Positions 1,164 to 28,713 are shown, numbered from the stretch's first letter. The stretch is 28,713 nucleotides of DNA from an uncultured Thermoplasmata archaeon (GCA_964399335.1 CAYNQI010000011.1:1-28713); one strand, 5' to 3'. A program made the numbers and translations. Notes: a model not told the origin generated them from the letters alone.

Positions 1164-2123
1164 TCATCTCCATTTTTTTCTAAAGGAGATCCAAGCTGGT
1201 TTTTTTTCGAAACCCAGTTTTTCGTTAAGATGAACTATACCCTTATTCTTCGTTTCGTTACTTGTCTTGATCTTAGAGATCCCATTTTCCTTTGCTTTCT
1301 TGATAACCTTAACTTTCATGGCTGTTGCTATACCTCTACCTCTGTACTCCCTTTTTACACCTGTAAGATAAGTGGAAAGAGAATTGTCTTCTTTCTCGAG
1401 CACATTGCTGCTCATCCCGATGAATTCACCTTCTTTGACGGCTATTATGCATCCTTCGAAGAAACGTCCAGGATGGTTGAATACTTTTTCGATGTATCTT
1501 TCGTAATCCATATGTGTATAATCGTCGTGCATAGGAACATCTTCCATCAGAACTTCGTGGAGTTCGTATAATCTTCTTTTCTTTTCTTCGGTATGTTCGA
1601 TGTCTTTCAGGGATTTTAAAAAGATATCTTCTTCAGCTAACTTATCCTCCAATCCTCCATAGTCACTAAAATCGAATTCGTCAACATCCAGTACAGATAC
1701 CCATTCCCTCATGAAAGGTTCGAAACCTCTGTCTTTTAGGAAACGGATAGATCTTTTTTTGTCTTCTTTAGCATAACACACGAGTTTTGATGGATCAAAC
1801 TTATCTAACTCTCCCATCAGATGGTTGTAAAGCTTAGAACCGTACCCTTCTCCTTGATAGTCAGGATGTATTTCTATATCGATCCTGAATTTTCCAGGTT
1901 GATAGTTACCTTCCCATTGTGTGTATAAACTATGTCCGATAAACTCCTCATCTAGCTCTGCAATATATCTTTGATGTTTACACTTTTCTGCTCTATTGTT
2001 ATCAATATGTTTGAAAAATTCAACACTGTTTTTTCTATCGGGATATAATAGGTTGTGTAAATTTACGATATCCTCATAATACGATTCATCGAATTTTGAA
2101 ATCCGGAGATTTTTCTTATCCAT
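1164..2123 (-). CDS. Tandem (two-domain) GNAT N-acetyltransferase
   Basis: Two acetyl-CoA-binding motif A copies ('HPDYQGEGYGSKL', 'REYRGRGIATAMK') and two 'xxGF' motif B ends. Confidence 0.9.
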   Translation of the reverse strand: MDKKNLRISKFDESYYEDIVNLHNLLYPDRKNSVEFFKHIDNNRAEKCKHQRYIAELDEEFIGHSLYTQWEGNYQPGKFRIDIEIHPDYQGEGYGSKLYNHLMGELDKFDPSKLVCYAKEDKKRSIRFLKDRGFEPFMREWVSVLDVDEFDFSDYGGLEDKLAEEDIFLKSLKDIEHTEEKKRRLYELHEVLMEDVPMHDDYTHMDYERYIEKVFNHPGRFFEGCIIAVKEGEFIGMSSNVLEKEDNSLSTYLTGVKREYRGRGIATAMKVKVIKKAKENGISKIKTSNETKNKGIVHLNEKLGFEKKPAWISFRKKWR

Positions 2124-3962: not shown

Positions 3963-4000
3963 CATTACAGATAGAATAGTTAGAGATATAGGTGTTTAAA

Positions 4001-5953
4001 ATGACAGAAGAAGAAAGTCATATCGAATCAAGAATGGAAGGTAAGGACATATACTCTCCTCCTGAGGAGTTCAAAAAACAGGCGAACGTAAATGATCCAG
4101 AAATATACAAGTACGCTGAAGAAAACTACGAGGAATTTTGGGCGGACCTTGCTGAAAGACTCGATTGGTATGAAAAGTGGGACGAAGTTTTGAAGTGGGA
4201 TCCACCTCATGCTGAATGGTTTGTTAATGGGAAATTAAATGCAGCATATAACTGTGTGGATAGACATGTTGAGAATGGAAAAGGCGATAAGACAGCTCTT
4301 ATCTGGGAAGGAGAACCGACAGACGAAACTAGGAAATATACTTTCTCTGAATTAAAAGATGAGGTTTCAAAATTCGCAAATGGTCTTAAGGAATTGGGAG
4401 TTGAAAAAGGAGATATCGTAACATTTTATCTTCCGATGATTCCTGAGCTTGCTATCGGTCTTCTCGCTTGTGCCAGGATCGGTGCACCTCACAGTGTCGT
4501 TTTCGGAGGTTTTTCTCCTTCAGCACTGAGAGAAAGGATGAATGATGCCGAATCAAAATTCTTAGTTACAGCTGATGGATATTACAGAAGAGGTAAAGTA
4601 ATCAATATGTGGGAGAATGCTGAAGAAGCGTTAGAAGGTGCATCACACGTCGAAAAAGTGATATCGGTGGAAAGGATCGGAAGAGATGACGTTGAATACA
4701 AAGAAGGAAGAGATGTTGTATATGATGAATTAGTTAAAGATCAATCCGTGGAATGTGAACCCAAAAAGATGGACGCAGAGGACATGCTTTTCTTGATGTA
4801 CACAAGCGGTACAACAGGTAAACCAAAGGGTGTTGTACATACTACTGGAGGATATTTAACAGGTACATCTGCAACCCATAACTATGTCTTCGACATCAAA
4901 GATGACGACATATACTGGTGTACAGCCGATATAGGTTGGATCACAGGCCACAGCTACATCGTTTATGGCCCATTAGCTAACGGAACAACCACATTGATGT
5001 ACGAGGGAGCACCGGATACACCCACAAAGGACAGGTTCTGGCAGATAATCGAAAAATATGAGGTGACTAAACTTTACACAGCTCCAACCGCTATAAGATT
5101 GTTCATGAAATGGGGTAGAGAGTATCCTGACAAACACGACCTATCGAGTTTGAAGGTTTTAGGTTCTGTAGGAGAACCGATCAATCCTAAAGCTTGGAAA
5201 TGGTATCACGAAGTCATAGGTGGAGGAGATTGCCCCATCGTTGATACTTGGTGGCAGACCGAAACCGGTATGATGCTGATCACACCTTTACCAGGGATCA
5301 CCGATTTGAAACCGGGTAGTGCAACACATCCATTCCCAGGTTTAAAAGCAGATATCTACGATGCCGCTGGAAACAGCCTTGAAGCTAACCAAGGTGGATA
5401 TTTGGTTATCAAAAGACCTTGGCCATCAATGTTAAGAACACTTTACAAGGAACCAGAAAGATATGTAGAAACATACTGGTCAGAGTATGAAAAAGGTATA
5501 TACTTCGCTGGAGACGGTGCTCGAATAGACGAAGATGGATATTTCTGGGTCGTAGGTAGGATAGATGATGTTTTGAACGTTGCAGGACACAGACTCAGCA
5601 CAATGGAGATGGAAAGTGCACTGGTTGATCACGAAGCAGTTGCTGAAGCTGCGGTAGTTGGAAAACCCGATGAAGTAAAAGGACAAGTTCCTATCGCTTA
5701 CGTGATCTTAGAATCCGGTCGTGAAGAATCTGATGAATTGGCAAGTGAATTGAGGGCACACGTCGGAAAGATCATAGGTCCGATAGGTAAACCAGCAGCA
5801 GTTAGATTCACAAGAGATCTACCAAAAACAAGATCTGGAAAGATAATGAGAAGGATCTTAAAGAAACTTGAAAAAGGAGAATCCGCTGGAGATACATCCA
5901 CTCTAAGAAACCCAGATATCGTAGAAGAGATCCGAGAGATGGTCAACGAGTAA
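4001..5953 (+). CDS. acs: Acetate--CoA ligase (AMP-forming acetyl-CoA synthetase)
   Basis: 'YTSGTTGKPKG', 'WCTADIGWITGHSY', 'DTWWQTETG', 'LPKTRSGKIMRR', 'GDTSTL'. AGGTG SD at 3990-3994 supports ATG 4001 over GTG 3992. Confidence 0.97.
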   Translation: MTEEESHIESRMEGKDIYSPPEEFKKQANVNDPEIYKYAEENYEEFWADLAERLDWYEKWDEVLKWDPPHAEWFVNGKLNAAYNCVDRHVENGKGDKTALIWEGEPTDETRKYTFSELKDEVSKFANGLKELGVEKGDIVTFYLPMIPELAIGLLACARIGAPHSVVFGGFSPSALRERMNDAESKFLVTADGYYRRGKVINMWENAEEALEGASHVEKVISVERIGRDDVEYKEGRDVVYDELVKDQSVECEPKKMDAEDMLFLMYTSGTTGKPKGVVHTTGGYLTGTSATHNYVFDIKDDDIYWCTADIGWITGHSYIVYGPLANGTTTLMYEGAPDTPTKDRFWQIIEKYEVTKLYTAPTAIRLFMKWGREYPDKHDLSSLKVLGSVGEPINPKAWKWYHEVIGGGDCPIVDTWWQTETGMMLITPLPGITDLKPGSATHPFPGLKADIYDAAGNSLEANQGGYLVIKRPWPSMLRTLYKEPERYVETYWSEYEKGIYFAGDGARIDEDGYFWVVGRIDDVLNVAGHRLSTMEMESALVDHEAVAEAAVVGKPDEVKGQVPIAYVILESGREESDELASELRAHVGKIIGPIGKPAAVRFTRDLPKTRSGKIMRRILKKLEKGESAGDTSTLRNPDIVEEIREMVNE

Positions 5954-10607: not shown

Positions 10608-11924
10608 TTATAGCTCTTCTATACTGCCTTCCTCTTCTCTAAGGTCTAGGACTCTTTTTGCCTTACCTACTGTTCTTGGTAGTGTTCCTGGTGGTAAGAG
10701 TTTCACCCTAGCCTTTATGTTCAGTATAGCCGTGATGTTTTCTGAAGTCCTCTCCAATAATTCTTCTTCGTCATACTTGTCCGAGTTATAGTATTCTCTG
10801 TCAACTTCCACTCTAACGAAAAGTTTGTCTAAAACATCTCTATCAACGATTATCTGGTAATGTTCACCGATGCCTTCAGTTTCTAAAAGAGCTTCTTCGA
10901 TCTGGCTTGGGAATACGTTCACACCACCAACGATCAGCATATCGTCGCTCCTACCTTCTATGCGCTTTATCTTAGGATGATACCTGCCACATTCACACTC
11001 TTCGTATTCAATAGTCGCGATATCCTTTGTTCTGTACCTCAATAACGGCATTGCCTCTCTGGAAAGCATGGTGAAAACCATCTCTCCTTTTTCTCCTTCT
11101 GGTAGTACTTCTCCCGTATTTGGGTCGATAGTTTCTACATAGAATTCGTCTCCCCATATATGAAGTCCATCTTGTTCAGGACATTCAACAGCTACTCCAG
11201 GACCATAAAGTTCGGACATGCCATAGACATCCTGGGCATTCAAACCGAATGAATTTTCGATACTTGTTCTAGCCTCTTCACTCCATGGTTCCGCACCGAA
11301 CATTCCGACTCTAAGATTGAAGTCCTGGCGGGGGTCAAATCCATGCTTTTGGGCAGCCTCTGCCAGATAGATTGCATACGATGGCGTACAAGCAAGAACT
11401 GTGGTCTGGAAGTCATTCATCATCTGGATCTGCTTTTTTGTGTTACCTGTTGATGTTGGTAGCACTGAGCATCCTAGTTCTTCAGCACCTTGATGGAAAC
11501 CTAAACCACCGGTGAACAATCCATATCCATATGCGTTCTGAACTATATCTGAGGATACAACTCCTGCTGTTGAATAACATCTAGCCATCAGATCGTTCCA
11601 AGTGTCCATGTCGTTACGAGTGTATGAAACAACCGTTGGTTTACCCGTAGTTCCACTGGAAGCATGGAATCGAACTACATCATCTTTATTCACTGCCAAG
11701 ATCCCATAGGGATAGTGGTCTCTTAGATCATCTTTTACAGTGAAAGGGACTTTATGTACATCCTCTAGACTGTTGATATCCTTTGGCGTTATGCCTTCGT
11801 TTTTGAATCTCCTCTTATACATGGGAACATTATCATAGGCATACTTCACCATCTTCAGCATCTTCTCTTCCTGTACCTTTCTGATCTCGTCCCTCTTCAT
11901 CAATTGAGCTTTTTTATTGAACAT
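10608..11924 (-). CDS. paaK: Phenylacetate--CoA ligase family protein
   Basis: 'VPFTVKDDLRDHYPYG', 'FHASSGTTGKPT', 'AYGYGLFTGGLG', 'YGMSELYGPG', 'LLRYRTKD', 'GRSDDMLIVGGVNVFPSQIE', 'LPRTVGKAKRV'. The true substrate cannot be determined from sequence. Confidence 0.92.
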   Translation of the reverse strand: MFNKKAQLMKRDEIRKVQEEKMLKMVKYAYDNVPMYKRRFKNEGITPKDINSLEDVHKVPFTVKDDLRDHYPYGILAVNKDDVVRFHASSGTTGKPTVVSYTRNDMDTWNDLMARCYSTAGVVSSDIVQNAYGYGLFTGGLGFHQGAEELGCSVLPTSTGNTKKQIQMMNDFQTTVLACTPSYAIYLAEAAQKHGFDPRQDFNLRVGMFGAEPWSEEARTSIENSFGLNAQDVYGMSELYGPGVAVECPEQDGLHIWGDEFYVETIDPNTGEVLPEGEKGEMVFTMLSREAMPLLRYRTKDIATIEYEECECGRYHPKIKRIEGRSDDMLIVGGVNVFPSQIEEALLETEGIGEHYQIIVDRDVLDKLFVRVEVDREYYNSDKYDEEELLERTSENITAILNIKARVKLLPPGTLPRTVGKAKRVLDLREEEGSIEEL

Positions 11925-12539: not shown

Positions 12540-14129
12540 TTAGAACCCCATGCTGACGAACAGAGCGGTCATCATACTAAGTATCAAAGTTAGTATGAAA
12601 ACTATCAACAGGTGCTTACGCAGGATTTCACTCTCCAATTTACCTCCTTTTCCTATGGTAGCCACTGCATTTGTGATCTTGGAAGGAGTTATCGCAGATG
12701 CTACACCTCCTGCAACACCGTGACTTGCGTAAACTGTCATGAATTGTTTATCGGTTAGTCCGATCTGTTCTGTCACCTGTCTTTGTATACCGAAGAATAA
12801 TACGTTACTGGCAGTTTCACTACCTCCCACGATGGCACCGAATATACCTAAACTTGCCGCCACAAAAATGTATCCGGGTCCAAATATATCACCTAGTACG
12901 ATCCCAACGATGTAGTTCATATTGTATTGTTGAGCTATTAACTGTAAAGACTCGCCTCCCAGTTCGTGACCGCTAAAAGCCATAATGTATGCGATTGAAA
13001 AGAACAAACTGTAAGCTATGAACGGACCCCATATCCTTTGAGACCAGGTTTTTAAAACAGTTCTTGTTTGTTCCTTAGTGGGTTTAAGAAGATAAAATGA
13101 GGCAAAGGCAGCCACAGCGATCCAAAAATAGACCTGAGCAAATACGTTGAATTGGACTGTTTCGTATGCGATTATCCAGCTAGTGAAACCAGGATCAATA
13201 GATCTCAAAAATATGTTTATCGAGGGCACACTAGCAATAGATGCAAGTATGATCAGAAGAAGCCATGGAGATAGTGCCCTGAGTAGCTTTTTCTTATCCA
13301 TTGGTTCATGTTCTAATTTTATACCATTTCTCTTCCTTTCCCAAACGAAATAAGCATAGAGTACTATCATTGAAAGTATACCTGCAATAACACCTAGGAT
13401 CATGATAGGTGCTCTTATGACGACAAGTATTATTGATGAAACACCTATGACTAGACCTGAAAGTACTGCAGGTACTATTCCCTTTTTCAAAGATTTTAAA
13501 CCACCGATTATCCAAAGCATAGCACATGAGATAACAGTAGCTATCACCGGTAAAAATAGGGCAATCCTATATGCAAAGTCGTAGCCGAATTCCAAAGCTG
13601 TCATCCCAAGTTGGTCTGCGAATAGATCCGCAGGAAGAGTTATCGGTATTGAAAGTAGTGCGAAACTCGTACTAGCATTGTACCCTAATACCGATATCGC
13701 AACTGCTGAAGAGGGACCGAAACCCATGGCTATCAACAATGGCGGAAATAAAGCAGGTGTGACAACTCCTAAAGATGTCACAAAGGTTCCGAAACCTATC
13801 CCGATGAATAGTGCCTGTTCTTCACGTGTATGGGCTACCCTCTTGATAGCTAATGAAATTGTTTCTAATGCCCCTACTTCTTTCATTAAAAATATTAGAA
13901 GCATTGTAAATACAATCGCAATGCTGATACCGAATGATTGAAAGAAACCGTAGATGGTAGCAGCTGTAGCTATATATATACTGGTTTCGAAAAACAAAAC
14001 TGCTATGATAAAACAGATGATCAATCCAAATATCGCCATCTCATGTGTCCTTCTTTTAAATCCGATTATACCTATGAATACGATCAACAAGGGAAGCAGC
14101 ACCAATAAAAATTTTACTCCTAGGGGCAT
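12540..14129 (-). CDS. L-lactate permease (LctP) family carboxylate transporter
   Basis: Polytopic; 'GIGFGTFVTSLG', 'LGAIVGGSETASNVLF'-like C-terminal motif ('FGAIVGGSETASNVLFFGIQ'), 'AITPSKI'. The start is placed at ATG 14129 because TTTATAAA (14159-14166) abuts ATG 14159. Confidence 0.88.
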   Translation of the reverse strand: MPLGVKFLLVLLPLLIVFIGIIGFKRRTHEMAIFGLIICFIIAVLFFETSIYIATAATIYGFFQSFGISIAIVFTMLLIFLMKEVGALETISLAIKRVAHTREEQALFIGIGFGTFVTSLGVVTPALFPPLLIAMGFGPSSAVAISVLGYNASTSFALLSIPITLPADLFADQLGMTALEFGYDFAYRIALFLPVIATVISCAMLWIIGGLKSLKKGIVPAVLSGLVIGVSSIILVVIRAPIMILGVIAGILSMIVLYAYFVWERKRNGIKLEHEPMDKKKLLRALSPWLLLIILASIASVPSINIFLRSIDPGFTSWIIAYETVQFNVFAQVYFWIAVAAFASFYLLKPTKEQTRTVLKTWSQRIWGPFIAYSLFFSIAYIMAFSGHELGGESLQLIAQQYNMNYIVGIVLGDIFGPGYIFVAASLGIFGAIVGGSETASNVLFFGIQRQVTEQIGLTDKQFMTVYASHGVAGGVASAITPSKITNAVATIGKGGKLESEILRKHLLIVFILTLILSMMTALFVSMGF

Positions 14130-14213
14130 ATCTATCGCCGTTGGGATAAGTAGTGTCATTTATAAATATTATCGAGTGTTTTTGTTCCTTTTTTACAATT
14201 GATAACAAAATTC

Positions 14214-14251: not shown

Positions 14252-16387
14252 ATGGCTGAAAAAGAAAAAGATCTCATCCCTCTCTTCGAGCCTGATTCGA
14301 TAGCTATAGTTGGTGCATCCAGTAAAAAAGGGAAGGTCGGGAATATTTTACTTTCGAACATCGTTAACTCGGGATATCAGGGCAATGTTTATCCTGTAAA
14401 TCCTAAGGGTGGAGAGATATACGGAAAAGAAGTTTACGGATCCATAGAAGAGCTACCTGAGGGTATAGATCTTGGAATAATTGTGATACCTGCTAAATAC
14501 GTGAGAGAGGCTATCCAAAAATTAGGTGAAAAAGGCATACAACATACGATAGTCATCACATCAGGATTTTCAGAGATCGGTAATACCGAGGAAGAAAACC
14601 TCATAGTTGAAGAGGCGGGCAAACACGGTATGAGGATACTTGGTCCAAATGTGTTCGGTATTTATTCTTCAAAAGTTGATCTAAACGCAACTTTTGGTCC
14701 ATCAAAGGTCGCAGGTGGAGAGATCGCGTTGATTTCCCAGAGTGGTGCACTAGGTATTGCCATGATAGGTAAAACAGCCATGCAGTACTTGGGTCTTTCA
14801 GCTATCGTGAGTGTCGGTAATAAATCAGATATCGATGATATGGACCTTATCGATTATTTTTCAGATGATGATGAAAGCAAAGTTATCATGATATACATGG
14901 AGGGATTACAAAACGGCCGCGAATTTATCGAAAAGGTAGAAGATGATATCCCTCCGGAAAAAACTGTTATCGTTATAAAAGCGGGTCGTTCTGAAAAAGG
15001 AGCTACTGCAGTCGCTTCACATACAGGTTCCTTAGCTGGTTCAGACAGAGTTTTCAGTTCAGCTTTCAGGCAAGCAGGTATCTTAAGAGCAGATACCATA
15101 AACGAGGCTTTCAACTGGTCAAGGGCCTTCTCTAACACACCTTTACCAAAAAATGATAAAGTGGTAGTCGTGACTAATGGAGGAGGCATAGGTGTTCTCA
15201 GTGCAGACGCAGGTGAGAAGTATGGTGTGGAGTTATTAGACGACCAGACTTTCCTCAAGGAAACTTTCCAAGATACCATACCTCCCTTTGGATCAACTAA
15301 GAACCCCATCGATATAACCGGCCAAGCCGGGAAGGAAGAATATGAAAAAGCCTTGAGAAAGGCCTTTGAAAGTGACGAGATCGGAGCGGTGGTCGGGTTG
15401 TACTGTGAAACAGGTACCACCGATGACGACGAAGTCGCAAAAGCTATAAAAGAAATCCATGACGAATATGGTGACGAAAAAACAGCGGTTTATACCTTCA
15501 CTGGAGGGGAAGAAGCCTATGATTGTGTACAATGGCTTAGAAAGAATAAGATATCTGCTTATACAGAAACCGATGAAGCCATGTCGTCTTTAGGTGCATT
15601 ATACAAACGCAAAAGATACCTTGAGAGGATGGAAGAGATGGAAGAAATAGAAGAACCGAATATAGATGTTAAGGGGATAAAGAAAGTTATCGATGAAGTA
15701 GCTAAAGAAGGTCGGATCAATCTTCTTGAGGATGAAGCTAGGACGGTATTAGATCTAGCAGGTATACCCATGGCTAAAGGTAAAGTTGTTAATACACTTG
15801 AAGGTGCAGTTGAAGTTGCTGAAGAGATCGGTTATCCTGTTGTGCTTAAAGTTGTTTCTGAAGATATCATCCATAAATCAGATGCCGGTGGATTGGCATT
15901 GAATTTAGAAAATGAAAAAGAGGTTGTGGATGCTTACCAGGCTATATACTCTAACTGTAAAAACAAATATCCTGACGCCCATATACGTGGTATCTCGGTT
16001 GCAGAGATGCTGAAAGGTGGAGAAGAAACGATAGTAGGGGGAACTCGAGACAACTCATTCGGACCTATGGTCATGTTTGGGTTAGGAGGCGTTTATGTAG
16101 AGATCTTAGAAGACGTCGTCTTCCGAGTAGCTCCCGTATCTAAAAGGGAAGCAAGGAGGATGATAGGAGAGATCAACGCATTCCCTGTTTTGGTGGGGGC
16201 GAGAGGTCAAACACGAAAAGATCTAGATGCTTTGGCAGATATTATATATCGGATGTCCTTTTTGATGAATGAAGTGGACGAGATATCAGAAATAGACTTA
16301 AATCCGATCAAGGCTTTCGATCAAGGTAAAGGTGCAAAGTCTGTAGATGTTGCTGTATCAATTAAAAGAAAGGTGATAGAAAAATGA
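14252..16387 (+). CDS. acd: ADP-forming acyl-CoA synthetase, fused alpha-beta (acetate--CoA ligase, ACD)
   Basis: 'LFEPDSIAIVGAS', 'RILGPNVFG', 'ISQSGALG', 'VSVGNKSD', phospho-His motif 'ASHTGSLAG' (His codon 15020-15022), ATP-grasp 'GYPVVLKVVSEDIIHKSDAGG', 'FGPMVMFGLGG', 'EIDLNP'. The 33 codons before ATG 14252 overlap the divergent promoter and are unlikely to be coding. Confidence 0.95.
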   Translation: MAEKEKDLIPLFEPDSIAIVGASSKKGKVGNILLSNIVNSGYQGNVYPVNPKGGEIYGKEVYGSIEELPEGIDLGIIVIPAKYVREAIQKLGEKGIQHTIVITSGFSEIGNTEEENLIVEEAGKHGMRILGPNVFGIYSSKVDLNATFGPSKVAGGEIALISQSGALGIAMIGKTAMQYLGLSAIVSVGNKSDIDDMDLIDYFSDDDESKVIMIYMEGLQNGREFIEKVEDDIPPEKTVIVIKAGRSEKGATAVASHTGSLAGSDRVFSSAFRQAGILRADTINEAFNWSRAFSNTPLPKNDKVVVVTNGGGIGVLSADAGEKYGVELLDDQTFLKETFQDTIPPFGSTKNPIDITGQAGKEEYEKALRKAFESDEIGAVVGLYCETGTTDDDEVAKAIKEIHDEYGDEKTAVYTFTGGEEAYDCVQWLRKNKISAYTETDEAMSSLGALYKRKRYLERMEEMEEIEEPNIDVKGIKKVIDEVAKEGRINLLEDEARTVLDLAGIPMAKGKVVNTLEGAVEVAEEIGYPVVLKVVSEDIIHKSDAGGLALNLENEKEVVDAYQAIYSNCKNKYPDAHIRGISVAEMLKGGEETIVGGTRDNSFGPMVMFGLGGVYVEILEDVVFRVAPVSKREARRMIGEINAFPVLVGARGQTRKDLDALADIIYRMSFLMNEVDEISEIDLNPIKAFDQGKGAKSVDVAVSIKRKVIEK

Positions 16388-17415
16388 AAAATCTCATAAT
16401 AGCTTCTACTAGACCCGATGCGGGTAAAACAACTGTAGGTTTGGCTATAGCGCTTTTAAATGAAGGTACTTTCAATTATTTGAAACCCTTTGGAGATAGA
16501 CCGATTTATAAGAAAAAAAGACTCATCGATTATGACGCAAAACTTTTCAAAAATATATTGAACTTAGAAGAGGATTATGAGAAGTTTTGTGTGGGTTTTG
16601 ATCACTCAAAAATCAAATATGCCTATGACAAAAAGACTATCGAAAATAAGATCAAAGATAGGATAGAAGAGATGAGGGAAAGCAAGGAAAGTGTTATCAT
16701 CGAAACTGGTGACGAATGGAGTGTTGGCTCATCTATAAATCTAGATCCTGTCTCTTTATACGAGTACACAGATTCAGAGATAATCATCGTTGCAACGGGA
16801 AACCGAACTAGTATGATAGATGATCTTCACACAGTGTCTAAATATTTCCAGGCTCAAGACATACCTGTTAAAGGTGTGGTTTTGAACAAGGTGGAATCGG
16901 TTGAAGATATACAGAATTTTGCAGTAGATGAAATAGAATCACTTGGCATGGATGTTATAGGCATCATACCCGAGATAAAGGACCTCTCTTTAACCAGAGT
17001 GAGTTTCATCAACGATATGCTGTTCGGTAAAGTTGTTGCCGGTGAAAATGGTTTGAACAACCTCGTTGAAAACGTTTTCGTAGGTGCCATGAGCGCCGAA
17101 GAGATAGTTAGAAACCCACATTACCAAAAAAGAAGGAAGCTGGTCATTACAGGTGGAGACAGGTCAGATGTTGTTTTAGCTTCTTTAGATGAAGAAACAT
17201 CCGGGGTGGTTTTGACCAATGATATAATACCGCCGAGCAATATCATATCTAGAGCAGATAGAGCAGGAATTCCTTTAATATCAGTTCCATTAGATACCTA
17301 TGAAGCTGCTAGAAGGATCGAACGAATGGACAGGATCACTACCATCGAAGATGATTTTAAGATAAAAAGGATCAAAGAAGACATCACCCCTAGGATAGAA
17401 ATTGATTTAGAGTGA
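16384..17415 (+). CDS. BioD-like P-loop + DRTGG domain protein (N-terminal half of long phosphotransacetylases; no Pta catalytic domain)
   Basis: 'IASTRPDAGKTTVGLAI', 'YLKPFG', 'VIIET', 'GVVLNKV', 'VGAMSAE', 'LVITGGDRSDV', 'IPLISVPLDTYEAA'. ATGA overlap with the acd stop; AGGTGAT SD at 16371-16377. Confidence 0.88.
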   Translation: MKNLIIASTRPDAGKTTVGLAIALLNEGTFNYLKPFGDRPIYKKKRLIDYDAKLFKNILNLEEDYEKFCVGFDHSKIKYAYDKKTIENKIKDRIEEMRESKESVIIETGDEWSVGSSINLDPVSLYEYTDSEIIIVATGNRTSMIDDLHTVSKYFQAQDIPVKGVVLNKVESVEDIQNFAVDEIESLGMDVIGIIPEIKDLSLTRVSFINDMLFGKVVAGENGLNNLVENVFVGAMSAEEIVRNPHYQKRRKLVITGGDRSDVVLASLDEETSGVVLTNDIIPPSNIISRADRAGIPLISVPLDTYEAARRIERMDRITTIEDDFKIKRIKEDITPRIEIDLE

Positions 17416-17463: not shown

Positions 17464-19311
17464 GTGAAATACATGCCATATGATGTAGATTATGTAGAGG
17501 CTAGAGATGCTTTAAATAAGATAGGGAGAGGTGATAGGGTATTCGTAGGATCTGGAGCTGCAGAACCTCAATACTTAGTTAAGGAATTGACCGAATTGGC
17601 TTCGGAATTTACTGATACTGAAATATTCCATATCCAGACCCTTGGTGTTGCCCCCTATACGGAGGAAAAATTCGAGGATAGTTTTAGGCATAATGCATTC
17701 TTTGTCGATGACAATACTAGGGATGCCGTTGCAGAAGGGAGAGCGGATTACACACCTATCTTCATGAGGGATATACCAAAACTATTCAAAACAGGCAGGG
17801 TTCCACTGGACGCATCGTTGATACAGGTATCTCCTCCCGATGAGCACGGATGGATGAGTTTAGGTGTGGCAGTCGATATCATAAAATCTGCTATTGAAAA
17901 CTCTAAGATGGTCATAGCTCAGGTAAATCCCAAGATGCCTAGGGTCCATGGTGATTGTTTCATCCATGTAGATGAAGTGGATTATCTAGTTCATTACGAG
18001 GAAGACCTGTTGGAATTCGATCCAGTAGTTTCTGGAAAAACCGCTGAGGAGATAGCGGGAAATGTGAGTAGACTGATAGAAAATGGTGCTACAATCCAGA
18101 TAGGATACGGAGCCGTTCCCAATGCTATATTGGAACATCTAGAGGTCAAGGAAGATTTAGGCATCCATACAGAGATGCTTTCTGAAGAACTCGCTAATCT
18201 GATCGAAAGGGGGATCGTTACTAATCAAAAAAAGAGTATCCATAAAGGGAAAAGTATAGCCTCTTTTTTGATGGGTACTCGAGATCTTTATGATTTTGTA
18301 GACGACAATCCTGGGATAGAACTCAGACCAACAGATTACACAAATGACCCCTTCGTCATAGCCAAGAATTACAAGATGACCGCGGTGAATACCGCACTTC
18401 AGGTGGATCTAACTGGGCAGGTGTGTGCTGATTCTTTGGGATACAGCTTCTACAGCGGGATCGGTGGACACGCTGATTTTATGAGAGGTGCAGGTTATGC
18501 TGAGGACGGTAAATCTATCATCGCTTTATCATCTACTGCTCAGGATGGAAAGGTTTCTAGGATCGTTCCATCCCTAAATGAAGGCGCTGGTGTGGTTACA
18601 ACTAGAGGGGATGTCGAATATGTAGTGACTGAATACGGTGTAGCTTATTTGAAAGGTAAGAACATACGCCAGAGAGCCATGGAATTGATAAATATTGCAC
18701 ACCCCAAATTCAGGGAAGAACTACTTAGAAAGGCGAAAGAACATCATCTCGTGTATCAGGACCAGGTCCTTGTCTTAGATGAAGGAGGAAGGTATCCAGA
18801 TGAACTCGAAACTATCAAAACGATAAATGATAAAGAATACATATTCAGGCCTATGAAGCCTACTGATGACGAACTGCTGAAAGACTTATTCTACTCTTTA
18901 TCCGATGAAAGCAGGTACAAACGTTTCATGAGCACCCGTAGGGATCTACATCACGATAGGAGGCAAGAATTCGTACAGATCAACTATAATAAGGAGATGG
19001 CCATAGTGGTAGTCGATCCCGAGATCGAAGGGCCTGATAGGATGGTAGGCGAGGCGGACTACCGTATCAAGGAAGGGCAGAACGTTGCTGAAATTTCAGT
19101 TATGGTCAGGGACGAGTACCAGAGTATGGGTATCGGGTCGGCATTGGTAGAATATCTGACCATGATAGCTAAGAATCAAGGTCTATACGGATTCACAGCT
19201 GAAGTTCTAGCAGATAACAAGAAGATGCTCAAAGTGTTCGAAAAGATGGGCTATGATATAGAAAAGAAGAGAAAATACGGTGAATATGAGTTACGTATGA
19301 GGTTTGTTTAA
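17464..19311 (+). CDS. Family I CoA-transferase/acetyl-CoA hydrolase fused to a C-terminal Pat-type GNAT
   Basis: N-terminal part: 'GDRVFVGSGAAEP', 'GRADYTPI', 'QVSPPDEHGWMSLG', 'TIQIGYGAVPNA', 'LGIHTEM' (catalytic Glu), 'QVDLTGQVCADS', 'SGIGGHADF', 'TEYGVA', 'IAHPKFREEL'. C-terminal GNAT: 'LSDESRYKRF', 'INYNKEMAIV', 'AEISVMVRDEYQSMGIG', 'AEVLADNKKML..FEKMGY'. ATG 17473 is an alternative start. Confidence 0.92.
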   Translation: MKYMPYDVDYVEARDALNKIGRGDRVFVGSGAAEPQYLVKELTELASEFTDTEIFHIQTLGVAPYTEEKFEDSFRHNAFFVDDNTRDAVAEGRADYTPIFMRDIPKLFKTGRVPLDASLIQVSPPDEHGWMSLGVAVDIIKSAIENSKMVIAQVNPKMPRVHGDCFIHVDEVDYLVHYEEDLLEFDPVVSGKTAEEIAGNVSRLIENGATIQIGYGAVPNAILEHLEVKEDLGIHTEMLSEELANLIERGIVTNQKKSIHKGKSIASFLMGTRDLYDFVDDNPGIELRPTDYTNDPFVIAKNYKMTAVNTALQVDLTGQVCADSLGYSFYSGIGGHADFMRGAGYAEDGKSIIALSSTAQDGKVSRIVPSLNEGAGVVTTRGDVEYVVTEYGVAYLKGKNIRQRAMELINIAHPKFREELLRKAKEHHLVYQDQVLVLDEGGRYPDELETIKTINDKEYIFRPMKPTDDELLKDLFYSLSDESRYKRFMSTRRDLHHDRRQEFVQINYNKEMAIVVVDPEIEGPDRMVGEADYRIKEGQNVAEISVMVRDEYQSMGIGSALVEYLTMIAKNQGLYGFTAEVLADNKKMLKVFEKMGYDIEKKRKYGEYELRMRFV

Positions 19312-19323
19312 GGTGAGTTCTAG

Positions 19324-20058
19324 ATGTCAAAAGAGGTTTATGATGGGCAATGGGATATAGATTACACACCGGTTCAAGAGATAATCGAAGAAGCAAAGGA
19401 TCGGAAAAGGTCAGTGCTTTTGGAAAGTGAGGCTAGAGAGATACTTGAATTAGCAGATATACCTTTTGCACGCGGTAAGGTCGTTCACTGCATCGATGAA
19501 GGTGTGAAAGTCGCTGAGGAGATAGGATATCCAGTTGTTCTAAAGGTCGTATCCGAAGATATCCTACACAAGATGGATGTAGGAGGAGTAAGGACCGGTA
19601 TCGAGGATGAAAATGAATTTGTAGATGCATACGAATCCATATGCACTCAGGTGAGAAATAAAAAACCAGATGCTAAAGTTCAAGGGATATCCATTGCAGA
19701 ACATATTAGTGGAGGCGAGGAAGTTATTTTAGGTGGGATGACGGATCCTTCCTTCGGTCCAGTTGTGATGTTCGGCATGGGTGGGATTTACGTTGAACTT
19801 CTGAAAGATGTGGTTTTTCGAGTGGCTCCTATAAGCACACAAGAAGCATGTGAGATGATCCGTGAAATCCAATCTTTCTCTGTATTGATCGGGGCAAGAG
19901 GTAAGAAAAGAAAAGATGTAAAAGCAATAGCTGAGATGATATCTAAGCTCAGCGAATTGATATATTTTGTCAACGGTATCCAGGATATAGATCTTAATCC
20001 TGTCGTTGCTTTAGAAGATGGTGCAGTGGCTTTGGATGTTGCTGTCAACATAAAGTGA
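19324..20058 (+). CDS. Stand-alone ACD beta (ATP-grasp) subunit
   Basis: Colinear with the C-terminal third of the 14252-16387 protein; 'GYPVVLKVVSEDILHKMDVGG', 'FGPVVMFGMGG', 'DIDLNP'; AGGTGA SD at 19311-19316. Confidence 0.9.
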   Translation: MSKEVYDGQWDIDYTPVQEIIEEAKDRKRSVLLESEAREILELADIPFARGKVVHCIDEGVKVAEEIGYPVVLKVVSEDILHKMDVGGVRTGIEDENEFVDAYESICTQVRNKKPDAKVQGISIAEHISGGEEVILGGMTDPSFGPVVMFGMGGIYVELLKDVVFRVAPISTQEACEMIREIQSFSVLIGARGKKRKDVKAIAEMISKLSELIYFVNGIQDIDLNPVVALEDGAVALDVAVNIK

Positions 20059-22594: not shown

Positions 22595-23500
22595 ATGCAG
22601 TTTAGGAAAAAAAAGCAGGAAACCGACCCGACGACTAAGAGGTTAATAGAACAAGGTATAATAAATATAAAATCTGATGAAGATTCTAAAGACAAACCAA
22701 CCAAAGAAAAACTAAGAGAATTTGGCAAAGTTACTTACGATTTCTGGAGTGGAGTAAAATACACATTAATTTTGTCTGCACTATTATGGTGGCTGCCTCT
22801 TTTCGGACCTATGTTGGCTGGTTATGTAGGAGGTCGAAGGACAGGTGGTCCTAAGAAAGGCATAGCTGCAGCGGTCTTGGCATTGGCGGCTATTTTTGGT
22901 ATACAGCTTGCTTTCACACACAATATAATCCCGTCTAATGTTTTATCCGTTCTAGAGATGCCTAGCAGCATTTTGGCAGTTGCCTATCAAAGACCTATGT
23001 TAACACCATATATTCGCTTTTTAGAATTATACTGGAGTTCTTTTTTCACATCTGTTCTAGGTGGCTTACCGTACTCACCTAACAGCTACTTGATAACGAT
23101 AATTTTTGCCTATGTCGGAGGAGTTGTCTCCATAGAAAAGAAACTAGAAATAGAGGATATAACCGGTTCCGGGCAAACGATCAATATCAACCTATCTAAA
23201 GTAACTAGAACACAGTCATCTAATAACACACCTAGTGATAAAAAGAGGATGTTAGTAGACTCTAATTATAACTATAACCCAAGAGCAGAAAGGCAATCGA
23301 ATAAACCCAAGAGATGGGAAGACCTTAAACCCATACAGTACAGCCAAAATAAACAGAAAAAAGATGATTGGGATAAGAAAAAGGATAATCAAAAAAATAA
23401 AAAATTCCAAGACAAATCTCGCAAACAGTCTGTGAAATTTTCTAAAAGGCCTGTCAGACATCATAGTAATTCTGAAGGCGATGATTGGGAATTCCTGTAA
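22595..23500 (+). CDS. Hypothetical membrane protein with basic low-complexity C-terminal tail
   Basis: 301-aa ORF with TM segments ('LILSALLWWLPLFGPMLAGYVGGRRTGGPKKGIAAAVLALAAIF') and a K/N/Q/D-rich tail. Confidence 0.75.
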   Translation: MQFRKKKQETDPTTKRLIEQGIINIKSDEDSKDKPTKEKLREFGKVTYDFWSGVKYTLILSALLWWLPLFGPMLAGYVGGRRTGGPKKGIAAAVLALAAIFGIQLAFTHNIIPSNVLSVLEMPSSILAVAYQRPMLTPYIRFLELYWSSFFTSVLGGLPYSPNSYLITIIFAYVGGVVSIEKKLEIEDITGSGQTININLSKVTRTQSSNNTPSDKKRMLVDSNYNYNPRAERQSNKPKRWEDLKPIQYSQNKQKKDDWDKKKDNQKNKKFQDKSRKQSVKFSKRPVRHHSNSEGDDWEFL

Positions 23501-24667: not shown

Positions 24668-27600
24668 CTATCCCCATATATCCTCCTCGTCCGGGGTTGA
24701 TTGTTCTTCGGTTATTTCACCTTCAAGTACTTCTTCATCGTTTTCGTTATTAGATTCTTCGTATGTTCCTTCTTCGTCAAGTACTTCTTCATCGTTTTCG
24801 TTATTAGATTCTTCGTATGTTCCTTCTTCGTCAAGTACTTCTTCATCGTTTTCGTTATTAGATTCTTCGTATGTTCCTTCTTCATCTTTTAGATCACTTT
24901 CAGTTTCTGATCTGTCTTCAGGTAAATCCTCCTTCTCATCTGAGGATTCCTCCTTGTGTTTAGAATCTATTTTATCTTGCTCAATTCCTACCTTGGAGTA
25001 TATTGTATACAGTACTGCTAACAGAGCGATTATGATCAGAATCAAGAAGAATAGATTCGTCATGTAGATCGGCGTTGGATATTCCTCGAATTCAACCGAT
25101 TCTTCACTGGTATCGGTTAGAACTATTTCCTGATCTTCTTGTAAATCCACATTTGTTAACAGATAAGTTGTTCTGAATGAAGCACTTATATGGTAATCAT
25201 CCCTAGCCGGAAGCCTGAAAACATATTCTCCATCAGTTGAATATCCAGTCCATACCTGCTCTTCCGTTGTGACCTTTAATTGTACGTCATCTAGATCTTC
25301 CCCGTTCTTATCCACTGTGCTGATTGTTAAATAGTATACGTCAGATTCTATATCAAGTGACCAGCTATTTTCTTCTGAAGTTACTTCATGTTGACTTTCA
25401 TGAACTGTAGTTCTCAACCATTTTACTTCGATATCCCAATTCTCAGCGGGTATTCTTATCTCAACTTCGCCCTGAGCATCCGTGTAACCCGAAAAGTATT
25501 GTTTAAGAGTATCTTCATATGTAACTCTAACCGGTGCAGAACTTAATGGAACATCTCTATCGTCCCTTACTGATAAATCAAGGTAATAGATGTCTGAATC
25601 TGCCGTTATGTTGGTGTCTTCGGTAAGTTGTTCTGTTTCTGTATGAACGACTACATTCTTCCAGTGGACCGTAAATGTTTGTTCACCTCTTGGTAATAGG
25701 AATTGAATATGCCCTTCGGTATCACTGATCCTGTCAGAGATTATGTTCCTATCTGATGGGAGTTCAGAATGTCTAACGATGACTTTAGAGTTTTCTACTG
25801 AGATATCTCTTTCATCTACAACATAAAAGTTAACATAATATACCTCCGCATCTATAGTTTCTGGGGCTTCCGAAAGTATGTCTTCATCAACCGTCATATC
25901 TTCGTCGTAAACAACGACACTTCGCCATTCAACTAAGATCGAGATCTCTCCAGCCTCACCAACAGGTGTAGGAACTCGGATGCTTATAGTACCGTTTTCA
26001 CCAGTCACACTCGAATCAAAATTCGTTCCTTCAGTGTCAAAACTGGCTCTTGCGTTGTTCAATGGATTTCCTCTAGAATCGACTATCTGGAAGGAAACGT
26101 GATAGATATCCTCTACATGTATCACCATCTCTTCGGAAGCGTCGAATACTACTGGGCTGTCATAAACCATTACACCGTTCCAGTGTAGAGTTACCTGATT
26201 TGTTGCTCCGGGTATCCTTGAGAATGATCTTCCGTCTTCTGAAGTTAATTCTGTGTGTAATAGTGTATCACCGTGTGAAACTCTAAGTCTGCCTCCACCA
26301 ACTGGGACATCAAAATCATCCTGGACCAGGAAGTCTATATGATAAACGTCCGTGATAGCAGTCATCGACATGTCCTGATTTAGATCTATTTCATCTTGAT
26401 AAACGTCTACGTTCTTCCAACTGATGGATATATCTAGCTCCACACCAGGCAATCTCATCTCTGGTACGGAACCGTCCGTTAAAGACGTGTCTTGTTCTAT
26501 CAAACTGTTTCCTATGTAGAACTCTACTCTCGCATTTTCAAGAGGTTCTCCTTGGTCGTCAACGATGTTCATATCCAAGTAGTAAACCTCGCATAGAATC
26601 TTGTAATCCTCACTAGAATCAATAACCATATCGTCATTATAGATCTCAGCACCTTTCCATCGGACTTCCATGTTCAACATAGTCCCAGGTAATCTCATAG
26701 AAACGTTTCCATCTTCTCCTGTTGTATCACTGGTAAGTGTTCCTGCTGTATGGTGAGATACAGTGATCCTTGCATCGGATATGATTTCATCCCTACTGTC
26801 TATGGTAAATAGTTCGACATGATAAACAGAGCATTCCAATTCTATACTTTGGTCAGTTCCAGTTATATCTACGTCCGTCACGTCGACTTCTATACCTCTC
26901 CAGGTAGCTCTTATCCTGTGAAGACCTCTCGGTAATCTCATCACAAGTCTACCTGTTTGGTCAGTATTACCAGTATTCGCGATGGTATCTGTTTCAAGGT
27001 TCCGGGCCACTAATCGTGTATTTTCTAGGTCATATCCGAGATCATCTACCGTTTGAAGTTCAACATAATATATCTCTAGTTCAACATCTAAAGACCTATT
27101 GCTTTCGAATTGTTCTGCATAGAGTTCTTTAACCTCCACACCTCTCCATTGGAAATTCAAGTCATAAGTGAAATCTCCTCCAGTTCCGGGCAGTCTGACT
27201 GTTAAATTTCCATTTATATCAGTCAATTTAGAGTCCGCTATCCTTCGTGTATCGTTGAACCTTATAGATACGTGGACCTCCGGAACAGGTACTTCTTCGG
27301 TATCCATCGTGTGGATGTTGAGATAGTATACGTCCGTATAGATCGTCAATTCTACACTTTCGTTCAAATAATGCTCTGTAGAATCAACTTCTCTACCAAG
27401 CCATTCAGTTCTCAAAGAATAATCTCCTACTGGGGATTGAGGTAAATGGACGTAACCATCAGTATCCGTTATCTCGCGGATCAATGTGCTATTAGGATGA
27501 CTGATAAAGATGTTTGCATTCGGTACCGGTTCTCCGGCTACATCGACGACCTTATAGGATGTATCATATACGGAACAATTCAAAGTGATAGCATCTTCAT

Positions 27601-28713
27601 AGGGCACATTATCGCTCACTTGGTACGTGGTCTCGTTTACCAATACATCTTCCCAGTAAACTCTGAAGATATATTCGCCTTCTGTGATACTGATATTCGT
27701 GACCCCTTCGTCATTTGTTACGTTACTAGTTACCAATTCCTCTTCTGAAGAGTAAGCTGCAACTTCTGCGTATTCTAGGACGATGTCCATCGAATCGACG
27801 GTTTGGAAGTGTATGAAAAATCTTTCCGCACCGATCCAGAAATCTTTTTCAAAGGATTCAAGATGTCCTCCGTAGGTTTCATCGCCTGGGTTATCAGGAT
27901 ATCTGTAGTTGTAACCGGTGTTATCTACTGTTGAGACAATGGCGGTGTATTCTCCTTCAGCCTGTCCACCGTAGTCCCATTCATAGGTAAAATTACTTCT
28001 GTAAGACGTATCGTTCCCTGTAACTCTTGTCATCGGCTCTCTATAGAATACGGTGCCATCAGGCCCCTCTACTGTCAAATTTACTCTGCTTATATCATAC
28101 CCACCGAAAGGATTCGTGATAGATGTGTTGAAGTGTATGGTAGTTTCATCTGCTCCAAGGCGGAAATCGTAGGATTCCTCGAATTCTGAGTTAAGGATCG
28201 TGAAAGTATCCACGTCGATGTAGTCTTCTGTTTCCACTTCTATTCTGCTTGGATACTCCGAGTCGCCGAAAGCGACCCTTTTTACGAAGTTATCACTACT
28301 CTCGATGACGAATTCTACTCTCAATGATGATTCAGGTGATATCGTATATTCATCGATATCCGTGGATACAGAATATTCGTTGAATATCGTTCTAGTGTTG
28401 TCATAGCTTACAAACCCTTGATCGATGAAATCCTCTGTACCATCTGGTTGTACTTCATAGAGGTTCATCGTAAGATCTAAAGTATTAGTGTGTCCGTCAG
28501 CTTCTGCAATGTCGATCCACATATTGATAGTGGAAGTTCCGTTAAGGGTAAATTCTCCGGCAAAAGGTGGATTTAGATACCAGTCATGAGTTATGGTAGA
28601 ACTGTACTCAAAATCTGTTATATGCTGATCTTCACCCATGGTAGTATTCATGGTCATTACATCAACATTCTCGTTGACCGTTCCAGTTTCATTATGCAGG
28701 TACATGGTTTTGG
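24668..28713 (-). CDS. Large acidic cell-surface protein with 11 carboxypeptidase-regulatory/Cna-B-like repeats, C-terminal TM anchor and acidic tail (probably 5'-truncated)
   Basis: Single ORF of at least 1345 aa. The frame stays open to the window edge (AAA ACC before ATG 28705) and no signal peptide is visible. Repeats of ~80-88 aa; TM 'NLFFLILIIIALLAVLYTIYS'. The fold assignment is inferred. Confidence 0.85.
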   Translation of the reverse strand, partial: KTMYLHNETGTVNENVDVMTMNTTMGEDQHITDFEYSSTITHDWYLNPPFAGEFTLNGTSTINMWIDIAEADGHTNTLDLTMNLYEVQPDGTEDFIDQGFVSYDNTRTIFNEYSVSTDIDEYTISPESSLRVEFVIESSDNFVKRVAFGDSEYPSRIEVETEDYIDVDTFTILNSEFEESYDFRLGADETTIHFNTSITNPFGGYDISRVNLTVEGPDGTVFYREPMTRVTGNDTSYRSNFTYEWDYGGQAEGEYTAIVSTVDNTGYNYRYPDNPGDETYGGHLESFEKDFWIGAERFFIHFQTVDSMDIVLEYAEVAAYSSEEELVTSNVTNDEGVTNISITEGEYIFRVYWEDVLVNETTYQVSDNVPYEDAITLNCSVYDTSYKVVDVAGEPVPNANIFISHPNSTLIREITDTDGYVHLPQSPVGDYSLRTEWLGREVDSTEHYLNESVELTIYTDVYYLNIHTMDTEEVPVPEVHVSIRFNDTRRIADSKLTDINGNLTVRLPGTGGDFTYDLNFQWRGVEVKELYAEQFESNRSLDVELEIYYVELQTVDDLGYDLENTRLVARNLETDTIANTGNTDQTGRLVMRLPRGLHRIRATWRGIEVDVTDVDITGTDQSIELECSVYHVELFTIDSRDEIISDARITVSHHTAGTLTSDTTGEDGNVSMRLPGTMLNMEVRWKGAEIYNDDMVIDSSEDYKILCEVYYLDMNIVDDQGEPLENARVEFYIGNSLIEQDTSLTDGSVPEMRLPGVELDISISWKNVDVYQDEIDLNQDMSMTAITDVYHIDFLVQDDFDVPVGGGRLRVSHGDTLLHTELTSEDGRSFSRIPGATNQVTLHWNGVMVYDSPVVFDASEEMVIHVEDIYHVSFQIVDSRGNPLNNARASFDTEGTNFDSSVTGENGTISIRVPTPVGEAGEISILVEWRSVVVYDEDMTVDEDILSEAPETIDAEVYYVNFYVVDERDISVENSKVIVRHSELPSDRNIISDRISDTEGHIQFLLPRGEQTFTVHWKNVVVHTETEQLTEDTNITADSDIYYLDLSVRDDRDVPLSSAPVRVTYEDTLKQYFSGYTDAQGEVEIRIPAENWDIEVKWLRTTVHESQHEVTSEENSWSLDIESDVYYLTISTVDKNGEDLDDVQLKVTTEEQVWTGYSTDGEYVFRLPARDDYHISASFRTTYLLTNVDLQEDQEIVLTDTSEESVEFEEYPTPIYMTNLFFLILIIIALLAVLYTIYSKVGIEQDKIDSKHKEESSDEKEDLPEDRSETESDLKDEEGTYEESNNENDEEVLDEEGTYEESNNENDEEVLDEEGTYEESNNENDEEVLEGEITEEQSTPDEEDIWG
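24723..24886. repeat. Tandem repeat, 54-bp unit x3, encoding (DEEGTYEESNNENDEEVL)3 on the - strand
   Basis: Units 24723-24776, 24777-24830 and 24831-24884 are identical except for G>A at 24884. Confidence 0.97.
25082..27823 (-). repeat. Eleven diverged protein-level repeats, consensus about (V/I)Y(Y/H)hxhxhhDxxgxph...TxxxG...RLP...hxhxW
   Basis: Units begin RFFIHF, VYDTSY, VYYLNI, IYYVEL, VYHVEL, VYYLDM, VYHIDF, IYHVSF, VYYVNF, IYYLDL, VYYLTI. No DNA-level identity is apparent by eye. Confidence 0.85.

Follow-up and report, generated by a model that had tools for sequence, protein, structure and literature searches.

In a stretch of 28,713 nucleotides from an uncultured Thermoplasmata archaeon (GCA_964399335.1 CAYNQI010000011.1:1-28713), hereafter called the window, we identified a gene that joins a family-I coenzyme A (CoA)-transferase domain to a GNAT module resembling the Pat protein acetyltransferases. 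With moderate confidence, we regard its product as a Pat-type lysine acyltransferase that carries a CoA-transferase domain in the place of the Pat regulatory domain; this domain is probably catalytic here and would inform the GNAT of the acyl-CoA state. Of the metabolic switches of prokaryotes, the reversible acylation of lysines in acyl-CoA synthetases is understood best, yet its enzymology stems from a few cultured bacteria. The open reading frame (ORF) is uninterrupted on the plus strand from either GTG 17464 or ATG 17473 to 19311, and the ATG is the likelier start, since database relatives are called at 612 aa. The following features were distinguished in it:

17473..19311, plus strand: CoA-transferase::Pat-type GNAT fusion gene, 612 aa from the ATG (615 aa from the alternative GTG 17464).
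17473..18765, plus strand: family-I CoA-transferase domain of the AbfT / Cat2 / TtCoAT type (PDB matches 9vag, 3eh7, 2oas, and 3gk7).
18166..18174, plus strand: HTE motif with the putative catalytic Glu codon GAG at 18172-18174 (E234 in ATG numbering, E237 in GTG numbering).
18457..18480, plus strand: GIGGHADF, the GXGG(X)DF oxyanion loop of family-I CoA-transferases, by motif and alignment.
18766..19308, plus strand: Pat-type GNAT module including the pre-GNAT extension (YPDELE, 18793-18810), based on PDB matches, BLASTP, AlphaFold2 (AF2) with Foldseek, and a tree.
18901..18927, plus strand: SDESRYKRF, which the alignment places opposite the gating motif of PatZ (V746-T763), predicted with low confidence.
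19087..19092, plus strand: Ala-Glu with the Glu codon GAA at 19090-19092, aligned with the AE of PatZ at the catalytic-base position.
19120..19137, plus strand: QSMGIG, the Q/R-x-x-G-x-G/A acyl-CoA pyrophosphate-binding loop (GNAT motif A), by motif and alignment.

The fusion thus consists of about 430 aa of an AbfT/TtCoAT-like family-I CoA-transferase followed by a Pat-type GNAT module of about 180 aa in a single ORF. In GTG numbering, Pfam detected AcetylCoA_hydro (aa 18-181, 2e-38), AcetylCoA_hyd_C (aa 271-424, 9e-68), and the GNAT domain Acetyltransf_1 (aa 505-597, 2.6e-12), confirming the fusion reported in a preliminary description that had been made from the sequence alone. All motifs and codons named there were recovered at their positions as well, i.e., HTE, SDESRYKRF, NYNKEMA (18982-19002), AEISVMV with the GAA codon 19090-19092, QSMGIG, and EVLADNKKMLKVFEKMGY (19201-19254).

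Comparison of the N-terminal 430 aa with the PDB revealed TtCoAT of T. thermophilus (9vag) as the best match (1.2e-129, full-length alignment), accompanied by 3eh7, 2oas, and 3gk7, and Foldseek matched the domain to 3gk7 with a template modelling (TM) score of 0.81 on the target. The Pfam families PF02550 and PF13336 were found with 132.8 and 227.5 bits, above their cut-offs of 24 and 23.7. E234 (ATG numbering) aligned with the gvHTEm of 9vag and 3eh7, i.e., with the Glu that forms the glutamyl-CoA thioester in family-I enzymes, so that the proposed 4-hydroxybutyrate/short-chain-acid type of CoA-transferase with a catalytic Glu was borne out by both the PDB alignments and the HTE motif. TtCoAT was shown to accept many short-chain acids in the transfer of CoA from acetyl-CoA, and T. 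thermophilus requires it for growth on butyrate (bioRxiv 10.1101/2025.10.31.685773). Judged by its motifs, the CoA-transferase domain is probably still catalytic in the subfamily of the window.

For the GNAT module, a sequence search against the PDB returned nine best matches that were all Pat enzymes (PatZ, S. lividans PatA, mycobacterial, and Sulfolobus Pat; 1.4e-15 to 1.4e-9), while non-Pat GNATs followed at 6e-5 or weaker. BLASTP with E. coli PatZ revealed 28% identity (5e-22) from the pre-GNAT linker to the end; the alignment opens in the linker (YPDELE versus YPHQLEE) and spans both the segment of the gating motif, as defined in the PatZ cryoEM paper (PMC12184503), and the AE catalytic position, with E540 (ATG numbering) as the acidic residue. 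The AF2 model of the module reached a predicted local distance difference test (pLDDT) of 81.6 and a predicted TM score (pTM) of 0.80, and its sole internal stretch of low confidence lay in the region aligned with the gating motif. Foldseek with this model listed PatZ, SlPatA, Rv0998, and MsPat as the top ten, with SpeG/RimJ-like folds from rank 11 on, and the best NCBIfam GNAT model was that of mycobacterial Pat (4e-22; next model 3e-8). A maximum-likelihood tree computed from 158 GNAT modules grouped the type I proteins, E. coli PatZ among them, in one clade (SH-aLRT 96), which sat among CoA-transferase-fused lineages. On the grounds of its sequence and motifs, its predicted fold, and the tree, the C-terminal part therefore appears to be Pat-type, as had been proposed, and the separation of the GNAT from Pat enzymes, named beforehand as the outcome that would speak against this, was not observed. 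Protein-lysine acylation is accordingly its predicted activity.

A word-indexed database search returned more than 120 full-length proteins of the same architecture with 53-57% identity, originating from Thermoplasmatota, Thermococci, Theionarchaea, Micrarchaeota, Bipolaricaulota, Actinomycetota, Pseudomonadota, and Dethiobacteria. Their database names go no further than 'GNAT family N-acetyltransferase' or 'acetyl-CoA hydrolase', which bears out the early suspicion that such fusions already sit in databases as uncharacterised annotations; they are in fact widespread under generic names. Among the matches listed, the closest named relatives belonged to Candidatus Saliniplasma (Halarchaeoplasmatales, Thermoplasmatota; 95% identity). 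An alignment scan with the GNAT only, using one genome per species, confirmed at least 525 stretches from many archaeal and bacterial phyla, and 80 loci taken from these derived from metagenome-assembled or single-cell genomes, again of many phyla. The CoA-transferase preceded the GNAT in frame in 85/85 loci examined, all of which had been gathered with the GNAT-only query, i.e., without the CoA-transferase in the query. When 1.84 billion cluster representatives were searched exhaustively, 2,133 proteins matched the GNAT module at E ≤1e-10; the top 150 of them were mostly CoA-transferase fusions or fragments thereof, with type I Pats at about 1e-21. Short Pat-like GNATs occur among the cluster representatives, many being gene fragments with CoA-transferase tails, and a shared-word search for short stand-alone GNAT relatives revealed just fragments and one 176-aa protein. 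Altogether, the fusion is a large family and not a one-off. An assembly or frameshift artefact as its source was ruled out by the identical in-frame architecture in the more than 120 database proteins and at all 85 loci.

Some members carried further domains. A 4Fe-4S dicluster region is fused ahead of the CoA-transferase-GNAT in P0184 and P0187 (960-967 aa), a response-regulator receiver domain follows it in P0120 (783 aa), and P0202 (965 aa) has a C-terminal extension of 400 aa with no Pfam match. A longer protein joining CoA-transferase, GNAT, and ADP-forming acyl-CoA synthetase (ACD) was not found, the search returning two matches, both lacking the GNAT, which is weak evidence.

Within the subfamily of the window, the active sites of both domains were strongly conserved. 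The CoA-transferase Glu was present in 30/30 aligned fusions and at 76/76 loci, and the GXGG loop at 73/76 loci; the GNAT acidic residue (26 Glu, 4 Asp) and the Q-x-x-G-x-G motif were retained in 30/30. A wider sample of 37 full-length fused representatives of 50% clusters revealed a different picture: the transferase Glu column contained Glu in 23, Asp in 4, and a non-acidic residue in 10, and the GG of the GXGG loop survived in only 17, whereas 35 kept the GNAT acidic residue. In the GNAT tree, these losses were spread over several clades that were supported and separate from each other. Since the GNAT residue is kept in 35/37 while the transferase Glu is non-acidic in 10/37, acyl transfer by the GNAT would be the constant function of the fusion, and CoA-transfer chemistry does not seem to be required for it. 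None of the five contig-placed representatives with a non-acidic Glu had ACD, DRTGG, or Acs (acetyl-CoA synthetase, AMP-forming) neighbours (5/5, a small sample); of two intact divergent representatives, an equally small sample, one adjoined an ATP-grasp subunit and the other a ferredoxin and a 2-oxoacid oxidoreductase. By analogy with the regulatory domain of PatZ, the partner domain may help the GNAT through CoA-thioester binding, oligomerisation, or shaping of the substrate pocket. The conservation pattern thus leans against obligatory channelling and towards a role as sensor or scaffold with catalysis as a retained second function, and we read the ACD-linked subfamily, including the window, as one in which the CoA-transferase domain probably kept a metabolic job as well.

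The gene order around the fusion in the window is ACD, AAA_26 + DRTGG protein, fusion, and stand-alone ATP-grasp_5 subunit:

14252..16387, plus strand: ACD with fused alpha and beta parts, phospho-His motif SHTGS intact.
16384..17415, plus strand: AAA_26 + DRTGG protein, similar to the N-terminal part of Pta; its start overlaps the ACD stop (ATGA).
19324..20058, plus strand: stand-alone ATP-grasp_5 gene (ACD beta-like), 12 nt past the fusion and with a GGTGA ribosome-binding site.

In other loci, the usual order is fusion, ACD, and DRTGG, and the stop of the fusion often overlaps the ACD start. Among 50 loci extending 3.3 kb or more to either side of the fusion, ACD plus DRTGG lay beside it in 32/50, and either this pair or Acs in 36/50. 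The strongest contextual clue, absent from the preliminary description, is the conservation of this operon, which includes an active ACD along with a DRTGG protein. The idea of a 'split Pat', in which the neighbouring ACD would serve as Pat regulatory domain in trans, was considered and rejected, since the phospho-His motif SHTGS was invariant in 37/37 operon ACDs and the ACD of the window is nearer to true ACDs (1.3e-155) than to PatZ (9e-76). By these sequence features, the operon ACD is a real enzyme and no Pat regulatory domain.

Further observations concern the neighbourhood. At five loci (L005, L032, L056, L064, and L069), the fusion lies directly downstream of Acs and not beside ACD; these Acs are 49-54% identical to that of the window, and the locus L005, which carries the fusion P0070, has a Sir2 gene at its edge. 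In the clade of the window, 11 loci have the stand-alone ATP-grasp_5 gene behind the fusion. A 483-aa frame for an alpha-only ACD was detected on another contig of the same genome (C14, around 17654-18061), and alpha-only ACD genes lie divergently upstream at L019, L020, and L023, so that the orphan beta subunit may belong to a second, split ACD. The longest frame of the ACD in the window, from GTG 14153, would overlap the start of a divergent lactate-permease-like gene (12540-14159, minus strand). ATG 14252 is the likelier start, because the alignment with homologues begins only at about residue 31-44 and the resulting 711 aa compare with 703-723 aa in relatives. Two Spirochaetota loci (L083 and L086) revealed two DRTGG-protein genes in tandem after the ACD, a duplication of the Pta-N-like gene.

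Candidate substrates of the GNAT are encoded in the window itself:

3992..5953, plus strand: Acs, ending in LPKTRSGKIMRR, a candidate GNAT substrate.
10608..11924, minus strand: PaaK-like AMP-forming ligase with the C-terminal LPRTVGKAKR, a second candidate.

The Acs retains PKTRSGK, the classical Pat target motif (PX4GK lysine). In the genome, which is 80% complete, the fusion holds the only Pat-like GNAT, and one Sir2 and three deacetylases of the histone deacetylase (HDAC) type were found for the deacylation side. A 319-aa protein with tandem GNAT domains (1164-2123, minus strand), 1.9 kb from the Acs gene, revealed a weak match (3.3e-4) to the Pat-type GNAT profile. Elsewhere in the window, a 301-aa ORF (22595-23500, plus strand) had no Pfam match, and a 1345-aa ORF (24668-28705, minus strand) reaches the window's end.

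In the mechanism that we propose, the CoA-transferase domain would sit where known Pats carry their regulatory domain, which is ACD-like in types I/II and ligand-binding in type III. Together with the co-transcribed ACD, the CoA-transferase domain would convert short-chain acyl-CoAs and acetyl-CoA into each other, either towards ATP formation or in reverse, and through binding of acyl-CoA or CoA it would signal the acyl-CoA state to the GNAT. The latter might then acylate enzymes of the acetate/acyl-CoA node, with AMP-forming ligases carrying the PX4GK lysine as the likeliest targets, so that ATP-making and ATP-spending routes would be kept from running together. The fused architecture, the intact motifs of both domains, the affinity of the GNAT for Pats, the wide distribution, and the conserved operon were shown here and speak for it. 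Several points weigh against it. The protein-lysine activity, the targets, the CoA-transferase activity, and the coupling of the domains are all deduced for the entire family. The full-length AF2 model (pLDDT 73, pTM 0.60) is too uncertain for the domain interface, and the GNAT tree is quick and unrooted with weak deep branches and E. coli PatZ as its only characterised Pat. The curated model of mycobacterial Pat was matched with 78 bits against a cut-off of 460, over profile positions 131-275 of 317, the model being longer than the GNAT module. Likewise, the equivalog for butyryl-CoA:acetate CoA-transferase (NCBIfam TIGR03948) scored 276 bits against a cut-off of 674.8; as the scores lie far under the curated equivalog cut-offs, no substrate can be assigned to the CoA-transferase domain. 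Finally, Acs adjoined the fusion in 5/50 well-flanked loci, and the operon link could reflect only a metabolic coupling of CoA-transferase and ACD, silent on the targets of the GNAT.

Two other explanations concern the part played by the CoA-transferase domain. Even here it could be a pure sensor without any part in metabolism, which merely binds acyl-CoA or CoA or oligomerises, comparable with the ACD-like domain of PatZ, which is inactive. In type I/II Pats, activity indeed depends on the regulatory domain, which binds acetyl-CoA (PMC8556138, PMC12184503), and lineages with a degenerate CoA-transferase exist. Conservation in the window's subfamily (76/76 for the Glu and 73/76 for the loop) implies selection on catalysis, however, and the five degenerate representatives checked lacked the ACD, DRTGG, and Acs neighbours, while intact ones were found near ACD, an ATP-grasp subunit, or a 2-oxoacid oxidoreductase, which makes this explanation unlikely for the window. 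The other is channelling, in which free acids are turned into propionyl- or butyryl-CoA by the CoA-transferase, which passes the product directly to the GNAT for protein propionylation or butyrylation. Though the two active sites are intact and strictly conserved in the window's subfamily and the closest characterised homologue takes many short-chain acids, acyl-CoAs diffuse freely, and in distant fusions the GNAT site persists where the transferase Glu is replaced by a non-acidic residue (10/37) and the GXGG loop is often degenerate. We therefore consider channelling very unlikely. Regarding the preliminary description as a whole, its domain identities, the lack of a CoA-transferase among characterised classes, and the generic annotation held up; of the two couplings it proposed, channelling and allosteric gating, the same 10/37 replacements lean against the obligatory form of the former.

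Two further explanations concern what the GNAT acylates. It might modify lysines of a CoA-transferase domain, be it its own or that of a neighbour, in the way that TT_C1711, a separate acetyltransferase, modifies TtCoAT in Thermus, and TtCoAT, the closest solved homologue, is the major acetyltransferase-dependent acetylated protein of T. thermophilus. The main site there, Lys5, is absent from the fusion protein, whose N-terminus MPYDVDYVEARD has no lysine; the Thermus paper itself calls the conservation of Lys5 limited, and the activity of TtCoAT was unchanged by acetylation (bioRxiv 10.1101/2025.10.31.685773), so that we see hardly any room for such self-regulation. Alternatively, the acceptor of the GNAT might be no protein lysine but a small amine or else an N-terminus, related to the acid of the CoA-transferase, given that the substrate class of GNATs cannot be read with certainty from sequence and that SpeG and RimJ-like folds appear from Foldseek rank 11 on. 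In view of the ten best structural and nine best sequence matches, which are all Pat acetyltransferases, and of the conserved Pat-specific pre-core extension (YPxxLE ... Y.RF) aligning with PatZ 706-760, this is the most improbable explanation of all. A Pat-type lysine acyltransferase with a CoA-transferase domain in the regulatory place thus remains the reading we favour. In a bolder, quite unlikely version of it, the CoA-transferase::GNAT, the active ACD, and the DRTGG protein would form one physical machine, in which a covalent glutamyl-CoA state reads out the ratio of acyl-CoA to free acid and gates lysine acylation; a GNAT gene abutting an ACD gene would then also be the evolutionary source of type I/II Pats via gene fusion and loss of ACD catalysis.

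New here is a putative Pat-type acetyltransferase with an unclassified, apparently still enzyme-like partner in a conserved acetate/acyl-CoA operon, for which we infer the function from sequence. Such a fusion is unsurprising in principle, because Pats are known to recruit folds of CoA-thioester enzymes. Hundreds of uncultured species, archaeal as well as bacterial, carry it, and it is linked with the ATP-yielding ACD and not just with Acs; as a sixth Pat architecture, it would carry the acylation scheme into a large unstudied share of the anaerobic biosphere. The family also offers a natural series, from intact to degenerate partner domain, for the change from enzyme to regulatory pseudo-enzyme.

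Bacterial lysine acetyltransferases were previously sorted into five types, none with a CoA-transferase partner (PMC8556138, 2021; PMC12184503, 2025), and the statement of the preliminary description that characterised Pat classes lack such a partner holds for types I-V. The 2025 survey searched with known types only, and the term 'CoA transferase' is absent from its text (PMC12184503). A full-text search found no published account of the fusion or operon, subscription journals lying outside its coverage and absence thus being unproven. The nearest published cases are the acetylation of TtCoAT by a separate GNAT in Thermus and, in the lactate operon of Desulfovibrio, an AAA + DRTGG protein that stands alone and has no known role (PMC4481167).

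Among known systems, the type I enzymes E. coli PatZ (YfiQ) and S. enterica Pat (PDB 9isq, 9it0) come closest: their C-terminal GNAT is homologous and gave the best fold match, and they share with the fusion a large N-terminal domain derived from a CoA-thioester enzyme ahead of the GNAT and a link to acetate/acetyl-CoA enzymes. Unlike in PatZ, the partner is a family-I CoA-transferase with catalytic residues, whereas the ACD-like domain of Pat has been reviewed as inactive, and the active ACD is encoded by a separate adjacent gene. Pfam revealed no CoA_binding, Succ_CoA_lig, or ATP-grasp_5 domain in the fusion protein, as would characterise types I and II, and no N-terminal domain binding cyclic nucleotides (cNMP) or NADP and no ACT domain, as would characterise type III. 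S. lividans PatA (type II; GNAT PDB 4nxy and 4u5y, the latter bound to the C-terminal domain of Acs) is similar in its GNAT (5e-15, TM 0.84 on target), but has this domain at the N-terminus, followed by an ACD-like domain, and no CoA-transferase. Mycobacterial Pat (Rv0998 / MSMEG_5458; cAMP-gated type III) provided the best NCBIfam GNAT model and Foldseek ranks 5-10 and also carries its regulator N-terminally; in contrast to the fusion, this regulator is a cyclic-nucleotide-binding domain, and the window protein scores far under the cut-off of the model. On the side of the CoA-transferases, TtCoAT (TT_C1083; 9vag) and C. aminobutyricum AbfT (3gk7) match the N-terminal 430 aa over the full length, including the catalytic Glu and the GXGG loop. 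Both of these enzymes stand alone. TtCoAT is also tied to protein acetylation, being acetylated in Thermus by a GNAT that, in contrast to the one in the window, is a separate protein and has an alanine-dehydrogenase-like NAD+ sensor as its regulator.

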